IMG/VR virus record: IMGVR_UViG_651053022_000007
Coordinates: 1 to 64,000 of that record
Reading direction: 5' to 3' (one strand)
Length of the DNA stretch: 64,000 nt
From: a virus
Taxonomy: Duplodnaviria > Heunggongvirae > Uroviricota > Caudoviricetes
Position 1 is the first letter of the stretch. The number at the start of each line of letters is the position of its first letter. The position numbers were made by a program. Shown in pieces: positions 58,101 through 61,100 of this stretch.

Positions 58101-61100
58101 ACGAGTGTCCTGAATGTCTGCTACCAGATCTGCTGTACTGGGGTTAACCAGATAAGCAGGCCTGAAGCCATCCTGACCAGTAATCTGATCGATATACGTG
58201 ATGTCGCCAGGAAGAAGGGAGGCGCGCTGATTCTTGAGGGAAGTCGGAGCAACCATCGGCGGATTGGTGGCTTTATCAATCAACTGCGACTTGCGCTTCT
58301 GGAGAAGTTGCAATGCCTTAACAGGTCCAAGCGCCAGCATACCCGGGCATGATGATCCATAAACATCTTCGCCATTAACTTCCCAGCGCGGAGCCATAAT
58401 TGGAAACTCATCAAATCCGGACTCACGCAACAACTTGTCGTTATCGCCACCAACCTCGTAATAAACCGATTTGAATGGCTTGTTCTTGCTATCCAGCTTC
58501 GATGTATCGCGGTCAATGTTCGGGTAAACCGAATGCATCACGTCAATCCACTTCTCGTAGGTGCCGCTTTCCCACATGCTTTTTACGGATTCGCTGACGT
58601 TATTTAGCCCGAACTCCTGAACAAGCTGACGAACAGTCATAGAGAACTTGCGAAAACAGGTGTCCACACTGCCACGAGGTGAGTTAGCCAGGTAGTAACT
58701 GCCTATCGGGAATGGCATTGTGCGAATGATGTCCTCGTCATCCTCCAGCACCGCCATTGCACCAGTGCTGTATGTGCCGAGGCTTCCGTATAACTGCGGA
58801 AGAGACTGGTAGAGATTCGACTTATTGAACATATCGTTCATGCGGTTCTGCACCGCCTCGAGCCACAACTTAACAGGACCATAATCCATCATTTCAGGAT
58901 CTGGCGTAGCCAGGCGAAACCACGGACGCGCGGGGCTTGTGATGCCTGACATCATGCCGCTGGCGAGAGTGCGCGCCGCCATAGTCCCGGTCGAATCAAT
59001 AATGCGTGTATTGCGTCGATCGTTACGGTTGACCTCAGAAGTCAGAAAGCGGGAACCACGCGGGTTGATGTAATCACTCAACTCGCGCCAGTGCGGCTCA
59101 AACGACTGACGCTCGCTTTCAAGTTGTGCGAACTGTTTGTTCAATCGCTCTTTAGTTGTTTCCGCCATTTCAATGACTCCGGTTACTGACCAAGCAGCGT
59201 TTTACCGCTGGTATTAGCGGTTGATGTGTCGCCCTGAGAACCGGTAAGCAGCGTAGAACTACGACCAGCAGCAGCGCGACGGCGACGTGTTTCTTCGTCG
59301 CGGGCATCAACAACGGCGACATCCTGCTCCTGTGGTGCTGCCTGAACTTCTGGTGTTGCAGGCACTGATGGTGAGCTACCCATGCACATATCAATGACTC
59401 CGTACGCAATTAAATTATTACCAATTTAACCACATATGTTTTATTTATCGTAGAAGGTTGACATTTAACGCGCTAATTATTACCTTTCAGGTAACTAAAG
59501 AGTTCATTCCGGTTACTAACCTGACTGGCTTGTCGTTAAATTGAACAGGTGGAGTGAGCTTTTATTTTGAGCAGTACGGCGTATGGCACATGCGCCGATA
59601 GCGGTCTGGATACGTTTAAGGGGCACCCTCCCTTGCTCGGGCAAACGAACCAGGTAGCCGGAATGTGCAAGTCGAGCGGTTTTATTCCGCGCACGGGGAT
59701 TCACCATCCCGGCGATTCGGTGTGACGCCTCGGAAGAGACGAGGGTACAACGATGAGAGCATTTATGGAGCCGCGACAAAGTGTGGCGCCTTAACAGGCT
59801 AAGTGCTCTCAGCGTTGTGGCATTAGCTCAGTTGGACAGAGCAACCGCCTTCTAAGCGGTTGGTCGCAGGTTCGAATCCTGCATGCCACGCCAGAATCAC
59901 GCCTAAGGACCGTGATGCCAGAAGTTCCAGGGGGTTGGCGGTGATGGTTTCCCTTGAAGGACTATCACCGCCCTTTTTACAGCAGGACGCCATTGCGATG
60001 ACTTCATGCTGTAAACCAGTACAGCCACGGAAGGCATAACTCATTGCTTCCAGTTCGCCCGGTTCGCCGGGCATTTTTTTAAGGTGAGATTATGAACGAC
60101 CAGCAAATCGAAAAAGAAATCGTTGAGAAAGGCAAAACCGCTCCGCGAGTTACGCCTCAATATATCGAAAGCATCATTCTTGAAGAGCATTTCTTTACTG
60201 CTTATGACGGCATTCGTGCTGCCAATATGGGCGTTGGCGATTCATGGACAGCGCATAAATCTACAGACCTCCTGACTTTCTGCGTATTGGTACTGAAGAA
60301 TGGCTTCACCGTCACCGGAGAGAGTGCCTGTGCAAGTCCGGAAAATTTTGATGCAGAAATTGGTCGGAAGATTGCCCGGCAGAATGCTGTAAACAAAATC
60401 TGGATGCTCGAAGGTTACTTGCTGAAGCAGAAGTTAAGCGAGCAATAACACCGTGGCATGTCACAAACAGCAAGCCTATGAACTGGCTTTGTTTTATCCT
60501 CACCAGAAGATATCAACGACATTATCCCCACCAGCGAATTAAGCATAAGGGTCATAATCCGTTATGGCCCTTCCCTGCTGGCTTTGCTGTCCTGGTATAT
60601 TTATGCGTTTCGAGACCGGGAAAGCAAACGTCAGCAGTAGCGCATCGCCTTTACCAGGAGAACGCCCAAGACGCTCTTTGATATCTTCCTTCGGTTCGAT
60701 AACGATTTTACCGTCCACACGAACTTTGTACTCTGCCGCAGACAGGTCGTCCGCTGTTTCCTGGTCATCCAGCATGCCGCCCAGCCTCAGCCATGTCTTG
60801 CATGAGTTGAACATCTCCCCACGCTTGTTGAGCATCTGCGGGTCAGTAGACGCGCCACCGAACGGAACAAGTTGCCATGTGCGCCCCCAACCATCACCGA
60901 TTGACTTCAGACCGGTACCGTAACCGAAGTCGATGAACACCGCGTCAGCCTGATACTGGTCTTCAAAGTCAGCGATACGCTTCGCCATAATCAGATCGTC
61001 GGTAGTCTTGTTGCCAGTCCACAGCACCTTACTGTGTAGCCCCTGCCGCAGGTATATCACCGCGTCATCAACGCCTGAATATGCCGGGTCAACACCGATT

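Follow-up and report, generated by a model that had tools for sequence, protein, structure and literature searches.

A short plus-strand island lies within the minus-strand genes of a phiV10/epsilon15-like prophage, flanked by terL on one side and by a 68-aa gene and the portal gene on the other. The island was examined in a 64,000-nucleotide stretch of the IMG/VR record IMGVR_UViG_651053022_000007 (positions 1 to 64,000; the window). A sequence-only reading of this DNA had described an operator-fronted plus-strand promoter that drives about 320 nt of noncoding sequence followed by a tRNA-Arg(UCU), and this description was confirmed; all three neighbors lie on the minus strand. The question raised by the locus is what is made from this promoter ahead of the tRNA, and what the product does. 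Almost certainly, the island is a repressor-silenced early unit that mainly yields a structured RNA, about 245 nt long (59576-59818) and joined head-to-tail with the tRNA-Arg(UCU). The promoter, the operator, and the tRNA are ordinary; the RNA ahead of the tRNA is not.

Control elements and tRNA of the plus-strand island

The TTGACA hexamer noted from the sequence was confirmed as the -35 element of a predicted early promoter (Table 1), and the TTGACA-17-TACCTT pair was kept in 30 of 37 related Uetakevirus loci. The -10 hexamer is weak, retaining T1, A2, and T6, and for this reason a stricter promoter scan called no promoter at 59458-59486. Transcription would start near 59493. The operator, previously described as perfect, was found to be real, with 18 sites of the motif at up to two mismatches in the window versus 1.7 expected and no count as high in 100 shuffles; the word “perfect” was a slight overstatement, because the site at 59479-59495 has one mismatch to the 17-bp palindrome ATTACC-N5-GGTAAT. 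As expected of an epsilon15/phiV10-type operator, this palindrome recurs at regulatory sites of the same phage, and the corresponding position of epsilon15 is annotated with a curated “repressor” binding feature. The distance between the upstream half-site and the operator recurs in the operator pairs 26790/26852 and 29895/29957, and a candidate helix-turn-helix (HTH) repressor is encoded at 29254-29838.

Table 1. Positions of the island's features and of the flanking genes in the window
Feature	Position	Strand	Details
Portal gene	57489-59168	minus
68-aa gene	59183-59389	minus
Direct repeat AATTATTACC	59413-59422	+	Operator left half-site, 62 nt 5' of the main operator
Predicted sigma-70-type early promoter	59458-59486	+	-35 TTGACA 59458-59463, 17-nt spacer, -10 TACCTT 59481-59486
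Predicted prophage-repressor operator ATTACCTTTCAGGTAAC	59479-59495	neutral (.)	Overlaps the -10 element and the predicted transcription start
5' leader	59496-59575	+	Uetakevirus-lineage-specific; inverted repeat 59487-59498 / 59513-59524
Conserved RNA core	59576-59745	+	Scored at 145.6 bits
H1	59577-59585 paired with 59589-59597	+
P2	59602-59608 paired with 59651-59653 and 59657-59660	+
Variable arm	59609-59650	+
Invariant 19-mer GGUAGCCGGAAUGUGCAAG	59653-59671	+
Small hairpin H3	59676-59690	+
H4	59696-59699 paired with 59707-59710	+
Pseudoknot	59702-59705 (CACC) with 59719-59722 (GGUG)	+
H5	59728-59732 paired with 59740-59744	+	Loop GAAGAGA
Helix H6	59747-59818	+	ACAACGAUGAGAGCAUUUA paired with UAAGUGCUCUCAGCGUUGU, variable insert between
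tRNA-Arg, anticodon UCU	59817-59893	+	CCA encoded; ARAGORN and Rfam
Trailer hairpin AUCACG...CGUGAU	59896-59916	+	Conserved
Intrinsic terminator 1	59937-59979	+	14-bp stem, then CTTTTT
Second hairpin and intrinsic terminator 2	59976-60080	+	Hairpin 59976-60015; terminator 60057-60072 plus seven T
118-aa ORF	60092-60448	+	Phage_gp49_66 family; last gene of the island
terL	60539-62014	minus

In epsilon15, an RNase III site is annotated in the stretch homologous to the 5' leader. The trailer hairpin was also found 3' of the tRNA-like domain in tRNA-less Uetakevirus relatives. No promoter-like site was detected between terminator 2 and the 118-aa ORF. This ORF is an independent module: two loci (L072 and L108) have lost it, and in a third (L015) a different gene takes its place.

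The well-formed tRNA-Arg(UCU) was upheld by an ARAGORN call and by a score of 73.3 bits against the Rfam tRNA family RF00005 (gathering score, 29); its 7-nt anticodon loop has TCT at position 35, and GCCACG-CCA is encoded at 59886-59893. The associated idea that the tRNA reads rare AGA codons proved half right in a codon-usage comparison. AGA was concentrated in the early and accessory genes, at 10.6 per 1,000 codons compared with 6.3 per 1,000 in the phage part as a whole, and there it was about three times as common as in late genes, but the portal gene, terL, and neighboring head-module ORFs (55008-59168) contained none. The remark on how unusual it would be for a repressor to govern a phage tRNA was weakened, as P1 trnA, trnT, and trnI lie inside the C1-operator-controlled ban operon (NC_005856 annotation).

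Structured RNA upstream of the tRNA

Five helices and a pseudoknot make up the RNA at 59576-59818 together with an invariant 19-mer and a long closing arm, the final two bases of which are the first two bases of the tRNA-Arg. Among 82 distinct sequences, 97.4% of the cells were paired and compensatory changes were present in 15 of 29 pairs; none of 500 shuffles equaled this result, and slid controls reached at most 46%. A pair of the pseudoknot alternated between C-G (61 sequences) and A-U (18 sequences) and was unpaired in none. H6 also covaried (92.7% paired, with compensatory changes in 6 of 16 pairs), and every helix of the RNA carried such changes. The plus strand is the RNA strand, because G-U pairs fix the orientation. 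The 19-mer was invariant across phage families; the invariant nucleotides were located in junctions, the peripheral stems differed in length, and the G+C fraction of the core was 0.59. Judged from these alignments, the RNA has the features expected of a functional RNA that adopts a tertiary structure, and its putative 5' and 3' ends were placed at the boundaries of conservation. The earlier suggestion of a small RNA or processed leader was right in spirit, although the widespread and strongly covarying RNA family at 59576-59818 had gone unseen.

The claim that 59500-59816 contains no plausible ORF also stood, no ORF being conserved. The length of the core varied across all three classes modulo 3, no minus-strand frame anchored on the invariant 19-mer stayed open across homologues, and the frame that was open over the 19-mer differed among homologues, with a minimum open length of only a few nucleotides. 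Spurious antisense ORFs cross the structured RNA, and a test of the orientation of the first downstream ORF was noisy.

Searches against known families gave only the tRNA. In 59350-60100, matches to Rfam 15 at the gathering score and at E values up to 10 were otherwise at chance level, and the sole resemblance within 59976-60080, to RyhB, had an E value of 1.3. The cdtI copy and 12 other loci likewise matched no family other than tRNA, and the Rfam 15 search of the window detected no riboswitch family and no GOLLD or ROOL RNA. The RNA was unannotated in RefSeq and everywhere else examined, and a search of a text library yielded nothing relevant on its sequence, on P1 ban, or on prophage structured RNAs. 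Several specific candidates were rejected: ARAGORN found no transfer-messenger RNA (tmRNA) remnant in the stretch of about 320 nt; a model search of the T4 tRNA region with filters off scored 3 bits at best, which gave no homology to rnaC or rnaD; and the prophage Pas sRNAs (Zhu, Shabalina and Storz preprint) are located in the Q and lysis region and are thus a different RNA. A boxA/nut element in H6 was likewise discarded, since some variants read GCUCUUU and others read CGCCGUUU or GCGCUCCC; the strand covaries away from the boxA-like sequence, and the likeness is therefore coincidental.

Distribution and genomic contexts

Copies with about 80% identity were found in lambdoid, P1-like, Uetakevirus, and Klebsiella phages. 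The RNA was carried by 1,840 of 5,426 complete E. coli genomes, Stx2-converting prophages included. Real matches in species-representative genomes were all in Enterobacteriaceae; a degenerate-pattern scan of the genome collection gave about 18 chance matches outside this family, all of which were rejected by the covariance model. The element was present as a single copy in 133 of 134 element-bearing loci, the exception being a tandem pair (L031), and apart from that pair no second copy was found behind pR or elsewhere in the phage in the window or the examined loci.

The surroundings of the element differed among phages. Of 130 distinct loci, 63 had it 120 to 200 bp downstream of cI, and lambdoid copies lay directly 3' of pL, in the nutL/putL slot ahead of a terminator. 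The P1 copy is situated between trnI (tRNA-Ile) and ban in the C1-controlled ban operon, directly in the ban 5' region. Terminators were called across loci by a fold-based scan that included long loops, such as that of the cdtI terminator; one followed the element in 29 of 29 Uetakevirus loci, in 38 of 55 loci downstream of cI, and in 0 of 9 P1-type loci. Two arrangements separate the RNA from the last gene of the island: L072 and L108 kept the RNA and the terminators with no plus-strand ORF before terL, and epsilon15 kept terminator 2 and the gp49-like ORF and lost the RNA core. The RNA and the ORF have therefore been lost independently, and this independence, together with the terminators that follow, speaks for a self-contained unit that is more than a leader. 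The downstream gene changed with context and had no common function. Since no protein neighbor is constant, the partner of the RNA is probably a host factor. The RNA is a portable module of its own.

A same-strand tRNA was nearby in 45 of the 134 loci and abutted the element in all but two, in which the gap was larger (+222 and +230 from the 19-mer). The tRNA-Arg lies directly 3' of H6, and tRNA-Ile(CAU) ends about 15 nt before H1. About two-thirds of the loci were without any tRNA; in 50 of 60 tRNA-less variants, the tRNA slot held a stem-closed domain of about 70 to 190 nt (GUUGUGG...CCACAAC). In addition, the H6 inserts of three loci (L108, L010, and L017) contained a cloverleaf-like fold or T-arm-like hairpins.

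Possible modes of action

The favored reading, to which we give a probability of roughly 0.4, is that of an early, discrete RNA that is matured together with a tRNA or tRNA-like domain and acts in trans. Upon induction or infection, host RNA polymerase would initiate at the operator-covered promoter and transcribe the leader, the RNA, and the tRNA, with most transcription ending at the terminators at 59937-59979 and 60057-60080. An RNase P cut at the tRNA 5' end would release the RNA 3' end just after H6; at tRNA-less loci the stem-closed, tRNA-sized domain would take the place of the tRNA, and in P1, maturation of the upstream tRNA-Ile would generate the RNA 5' end. The freed RNA would act in trans in early lytic growth, its single-stranded 19-mer and pseudoknot binding a conserved host component met by all these unrelated phages; candidate targets are RNA polymerase, an RNase, and a tRNA-directed or other defense factor. 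The tRNA-Arg would decode the AGA codons of early and accessory genes. Three observations were counted against action in trans: the P1-type loci, with no terminator and with the element in the ban 5' region, look more leader-like; the nutL/putL slot in lambdoids without an annotated N is where a cis antiterminator would be expected; and the base of H1 is identical to that of put stem I.

The chief rival, possible but more doubtful, is that the nascent RNA folds, binds the transcribing host RNA polymerase, and carries it through the following terminators, like HK022 put, with the outcome that the gp49-like ORF is expressed in the window and the whole early-left operon is opened in lambdoids without N. 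Like put of HK022 and HK639, the RNA lies just 3' of a repressor-controlled early promoter and before terminators, and no phage protein partner is required. The order of promoter, RNA, intrinsic terminator(s), and genes, with no promoter between, was found in the window, cdtI, and BUCT708. The frequent position downstream of cI agrees with this rival, as does the lack of an annotated N gene among the first pL-operon genes of cdtI, mEp460, 1720a-02, Stx2a_1447, and mEp390. A boxA of the GCTCTTTA type was absent from the window and other Uetakevirus loci, and of the 63 loci downstream of cI just 3 had one. A put-like RNA has been suggested for N-less lambdoids with yfdP/Q/R-type early-left genes (PMC12315714), and in the HK639 stretch 24000-40000 a put-like RNA is annotated downstream of pL only, with none downstream of pR. 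Furthermore, the foot of H1 (A-CGGCG / CG(U/C)CG, with a G-U third pair) has the same five base pairs as the put stem I foot in HK022 and HK639, next to which the A9-G35 pair of put is, according to the structure paper, the platform for the polymerase beta-prime zinc-binding domain.

The resemblance to put ends at that foot. No two-stem-loop element of about 70 nt homologous to putL or putR was found, and the covariance model gave no match in the put regions of HK639 or HK022. Whereas put is about 70 nt long (126 nt as annotated in HK639) with two stem-loops, the RNA described here is three to eight times as large, with a 170-nt core containing a pseudoknot, the H6 arm, and a third domain or tRNA, and the extra domains are left unexplained by antitermination. 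It also occurs outside lambdoids and at loci with nothing downstream to antiterminate (L072 and L108); epsilon15 has terminator 2 and the ORF without the core, the P1-type loci lack a terminator after the RNA, and in the three lambdoid loci with a boxA, this rrn-like boxA lies immediately 3' of the core.

Three further explanations fared worse. A ligand- or signal-sensing, riboswitch-like leader that sets early expression or tRNA output would account for the invariant junction nucleotides, the pseudoknot, the variable-length peripheral stems, and the placement between promoter and terminator, but it is improbable: the terminators lie 100 to 250 nt past the core with a tRNA or other folded domain intervening, no alternative pairing joins the core to a terminator to give an aptamer with an overlapping expression platform, the downstream genes lack a common function, and no riboswitch family was matched. 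Still less probable is a passive tRNA leader or spacer, or a set of decayed tRNAs, that hitchhikes without function on the tRNA-Arg. Such a sequence would fit the adjacency to tRNAs in a third of the loci and the tRNA-like fragments in some H6 inserts; against it stand the tRNA-free majority of loci, the constancy of the 19-mer across phage families, and the compensatory changes, which mean selection on the fold and already contradict it. Decayed tRNA genes, an option raised in the sequence-only reading, were not borne out, as neither ARAGORN nor Rfam (E values up to 10) detected any trace of a tRNA in 59500-59816 and the fold differs from a cloverleaf. A small protein from 59500-59816 (a plus-strand ORF of 52 or 45 aa or a minus-strand ORF of 87 aa) is scarcely credible, for although ORFs of 45 to 87 aa exist in the window and mEp460 and mEp390 annotate hypothetical proteins over the element, all candidates start with TTG or GTG, and the core's length classes and shifting open frame speak against coding.

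The trans-acting reading has counterparts among other phage RNAs. The T4 species 1 and 2 RNAs (rnaC and rnaD) are likewise phage RNAs without an assigned function, beside tRNA-Arg(UCU) and tRNA-Ile in a tRNA transcription unit, and are released by tRNA processing; they differ in having no sequence or structure similarity to the present RNA, in their lengths of 119 and 139 nt, and in that T4 is virulent. GOLLD and ROOL RNAs, likewise phage-borne and elaborate, have variable domain insertions, a recurrent tRNA-gene association, and no assigned function, and are reportedly the subject of a cryo-EM preprint. They are longer (about 580 to 800 nt, versus about 250 to 600 nt here), and the present RNA has no Rfam match and, among species-representative genomes, was confined to Enterobacteriaceae. 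The P1 ban operon offers a precedent for phage tRNAs directly under a prophage repressor and carries the same RNA, there between trnI and ban; in P1, however, the RNA lies 3' rather than 5' of the tRNA, is without H6, and has no terminator after it.

It may be, as a more tentative proposal, that this is an undescribed class of phage RNA, the first product of early promoters in several unrelated temperate families, acting on a host machine without a phage protein. Two versions of it can be envisaged: an N-substituting antiterminator far larger than put, and an RNA linked to tRNAs that counters a tRNA-directed defense or a host RNase. In lambdoids without an annotated N, the RNA occupies the first transcribed position of early operons; in phages of the epsilon15/phiV10 group it lies in a dedicated early cassette, and its host is genetically tractable. 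Action on RNA polymerase would explain how N-less lambdoids open their early-left operon; action in trans would make the RNA an enterobacterial counterpart of the tRNA-linked phage RNAs represented by T4 species 1 and 2, GOLLD, and ROOL.

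Promoter and operator of the plus-strand island

Positions 26283-64000 of the window form a phiV10/epsilon15-like (Uetakevirus) prophage, in which the plus-strand island carrying the structured RNA and the tRNA is placed between terL and the 68-aa gene. The operator-fronted plus-strand promoter proposed in the sequence-only reading was recovered at this place, with a -35 hexamer and an operator that overlaps the -10 hexamer. The -10 hexamer, TACCTT, is weak and retains only T1, A2, and T6, and for this reason a stricter promoter scan of the window called no promoter for the pair; the TTGACA-17-TACCTT pair is conserved in 30 of 37 related loci. 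The operator, which had been called perfect, belongs to a motif, ATTACC-N5-GGTAAT, found at 18 sites in the window with two or fewer mismatches (1.7 expected), but it departs from the palindrome at one position. The sites mostly adjoin regulatory genes, a repressor site is curated at the corresponding place in the epsilon15 record, and a left half-site (59413) lies 62 nt upstream of the main operator. Judged from these elements, the Uetakevirus RNA is predicted to have its own operator-controlled promoter.

Several neighboring features were recorded. Two operator pairs, 26790/26852 and 29895/29957, are exactly 62 nt apart, like the half-site and operator of the island, and flank a candidate helix-turn-helix repressor gene (29254-29838). 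An immI-like module of the phiV10-like prophage occupies 40393-41836. Between terminator 1 and the gp49-like ORF, 59976-60080 contains a self-contained hairpin and a strong terminator, which could be a separate small RNA or merely a second terminator; its best Rfam resemblance, to RyhB, is at chance level (E=1.3). In a phiV10-like locus, a protein of 292 aa that matches no Pfam family fills the slot of the gp49-like ORF, ~430-1310 nt past the 19-mer, and this slot appears to be a hot spot of cargo exchange. The window is a mosaic in which the phiV10-like genome begins near 26283; AS-traI and sok suggest F-type plasmid DNA, and lambdoid-prophage-like DNA at ~20-26 kb is the setting of tRNA-Val(TAC) and DicF.

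Features of the window, with strand where assigned
Feature	Position	Strand	Remarks
AS-traI	3843-3919		
sok	10627-10798		
tRNA-Val(TAC)	19558-19633		
DicF	25062-25113		
Operator	40393		perfect
isrK	40826-40901		above Rfam gathering score
C4 antisense RNA	40926-41011		above Rfam gathering score
Bro-N antirepressor-type ORF	41059-41754		
Further operator	41820		
Portal	57489-59168	minus	
68-aa gene	59183-59389	minus	
-35 hexamer TTGACA	59458-59463	plus	17-base spacer to TACCTT
Operator ATTACCTTTCAGGTAAC	59479-59495		overlaps -10 and likely start site
Invariant 19-mer GGTAGCCGGAATGTGCAAG	59653-59671	plus	
Long helix H6	59747-59765 paired with 59800-59818	plus	encloses variable insert
tRNA-Arg(UCU)	59817-59893	plus	ARAGORN; 73.3 bits against Rfam tRNA; CCA encoded
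terL	60539-62014	minus	
terS	62011-62613	minus	

Conservation and fold of the RNA

In sensitive blastn searches, 59576-59816 showed 70-83% identity to unannotated DNA of unrelated phages. The matches included the lambdoid phages cdtI, mEp460, mEp390, 2H10, Ayreon, 1720a-02, and Stx2a- and Stx2c-converting phages; the P1-type phages P1, P7, D6, SJ46, and RCS47; and Klebsiella and Enterobacter phages and one phage isolated on Stenotrophomonas. The exact 19-mer was present in at least 120 IMG/VR viral contigs. Helices H1, P2, H4, and H5 of the core were derived with RNAalifold from an alignment of 27 representatives, and the resulting covariance model scored full-length copies at 122-169 bits (145.6 for the window copy). 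Across 82 distinct sequences, 97.4% of core cells were paired and both sides had changed in 15 of 29 pairs; none of 500 shuffles reached these values, and sliding the partner lowered pairing to 29-46%. The H4 loop UUCACCA pairs with a downstream GGUG to form a pseudoknot, one pair of which alternates between C-G (61 sequences) and A-U (18) and is unpaired in none. H6 also covaries, with 92.7% pairing and compensatory changes in 6 of 16 pairs. The frequent G-U pairs would read C-A on the opposite strand, which identifies the plus strand as that of the RNA.

No ORF was conserved across the homologues on either strand, in agreement with the initial view that the ~320 nt held no plausible ORF, and an Rfam 15 scan that matched the tRNA returned no family for the upstream sequence, even at E up to 10. 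It follows from the conservation, the covariation, and the lack of an ORF or Rfam family that the 320-nt stretch is a lineage-specific leader of ~80 nt and then a structured RNA of ~245 nt, the final two bases of which are the first two of tRNA-Arg. One contig (L031) contains two full same-strand cores ~800 nt apart, at 3990-4154 and 4797-4959 (130 and 163 bits). In epsilon15, H1 and the start of P2 remain at 1549-1624 (33 bits), the core and tRNA being lost in a deletion that extends to mid-terminator 1; an RNase III site annotated in that record overlaps the start of the remnant.

Among one-per-species genomes, all real matches were in Enterobacteriaceae (Kosakonia, Klebsiella, Citrobacter, Escherichia, and Pseudescherichia). 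The RNA was found in 1,840 of 5,426 complete E. coli genomes, at 2,474 places (554 on plasmids), none annotated; RefSeq and GenBank entries have no feature there or show spurious ORFs across it, and searches of open-access papers by sequence and related topic found no published description.

Linkage to tRNAs and repressor-controlled transcripts

The tRNA-Arg(UCU) reported from the sequence proved genuine. A same-strand tRNA lies near the element in 45 of 134 loci. Two of these tRNAs are set farther off, at +222 and +230 relative to the 19-mer; the others abut the element. In the Uetakevirus group, tRNA-Arg(UCU) immediately follows H6; in the P1 group, the 3' end of tRNA-Ile(CAU) is ~15 nt upstream of H1. 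In 50 of 60 tRNA-less variants, GUUGUGG after H6 is matched by CCACAAC 70-190 nt downstream, a pairing that closes a third folded domain in the slot held by the tRNA in the window; the trailer hairpin of the window also follows this domain in tRNA-less Uetakevirus relatives. The H6 insert of L108 can be folded into a cloverleaf-like form whose T-loop is UUCGAUU, and those of 1720a-02 and L017 have two T-arm-like hairpins with T-loop sequences; none of these three inserts reached the Rfam tRNA threshold. In tRNA-less relatives such as L003 (2741-2860) and L072, the GUUGU after H6 can pair with either the H6-opening ACAAC or the ACAAC of the downstream CCACAAC, and these mutually exclusive helices could form a switch; no second ACAAC is present in the tRNA-bearing window.

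AGA codons are used in the phage part of the window (6.3 per 1,000), as a codon-usage comparison suggested by the sequence-only reading showed, but the late genes are not where they concentrate: the frequency is 10.6 per 1,000 among early and accessory genes at 26-42 kb, where an 820-aa ORF (37827-40289) has 13, and 3.3 per 1,000 at 42-64 kb, with none in portal, terL, or the ORFs between 55008 and 59168. This distribution would fit an early, repressor-controlled tRNA better than a late-gene role. Repressor control of a phage tRNA, initially thought unusual, was already known from P1, in which the RNA lies between trnI (tRNA-Ile, CAU) and ban, within the C1-operator-controlled ban operon.

In 63 of 130 distinct loci, a same-strand cI lies 120-200 bp upstream. 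In cdtI, the cI stop is followed by a terminator, a promoter/operator, the RNA, a strong terminator, and the early-left genes; BUCT708 has the same arrangement of promoter, RNA, terminator, and genes. The cdtI promoter, TTGACA-16-CATAAT (11 of 12 matches), overlaps an operator similar to those in the cI-cro interval, and the RNA starts ~42 nt farther on. The RNA is here in the pL-proximal slot, which holds nutL and N in lambda and putL in HK022 and HK639, and no N gene is annotated in this slot in cdtI, mEp460, 1720a-02, Stx2a_1447, or mEp390. In three lambdoid loci (L093, at 3340-3400, L037, and L050), H6 gives way to a hairpin, after which come a perfect boxA of the rrn type, GCTCTTTAACAA, and a potential boxB; pL and this nut-like site flank the core. 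In all settings described, the RNA is predicted to be part of a prophage-repressor-controlled transcript.

Candidate roles of the RNA

The downstream genes vary and include a Phage_gp49_66 protein in the window, the ban helicase in P1, an unrelated 120-aa protein in the cdtI type, and others. Since no constant protein neighbor was found among the loci compared, the partner is probably a host component or small molecule. Two readings, not strictly exclusive, fit most of the facts. To the first we assign a probability of roughly 0.4: a discrete early RNA would be matured with a tRNA or tRNA-like domain and would act in trans. A terminator lies 3' of the RNA in all 29 Uetakevirus loci and in 38 of 55 loci downstream of cI; L072 and L108 retain promoter, RNA, and terminators, and the convergent terL follows without any plus-strand ORF in between; and epsilon15, without core and tRNA, retains terminator 2 and the ORF. 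The T4 RNAs rnaC and rnaD, stable species beside tRNA-Arg and tRNA-Ile, are similar in extra domains and tRNA links but have no homology to the window RNA.

The second reading, somewhat less probable than the first, is that the RNA acts as a cis antiterminator like put of HK022 and HK639. The lambdoid order of pL, RNA, terminator, and genes, with no annotated N, would suit it, as would the two terminators ahead of the ORF in the window with no intervening promoter. Put-like RNA has been suggested for lambdoids without N (PMC12315714), and HK639 is annotated with put-like RNA only downstream of pL (stretch 24000-40000 examined). The H1 foot, A-CGGCG/CG(U/C)CG with G-U as third pair, equals that of put stem I: the five foot pairs and preceding A are identical in the window (59577-59597), HK022 (4279-4308), and HK639 (10280-10313), and the adjoining A9-G35 pair of put is, according to the structure paper, the platform on which the beta-prime zinc-binding domain is bound. 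A GGAAGAG stretch in HK639 putL also resembles the H5 loop. However, the covariance model did not detect put, the RNA is far larger, stand-alone loci exist, P1 has no terminator after the RNA, and an rrn-like boxA directly follows the core in three loci.

The island has an ordinary promoter, operator, and tRNA. Its RNA constitutes a new family of a general kind already known, that of tRNA-linked phage structured RNAs or early leaders.
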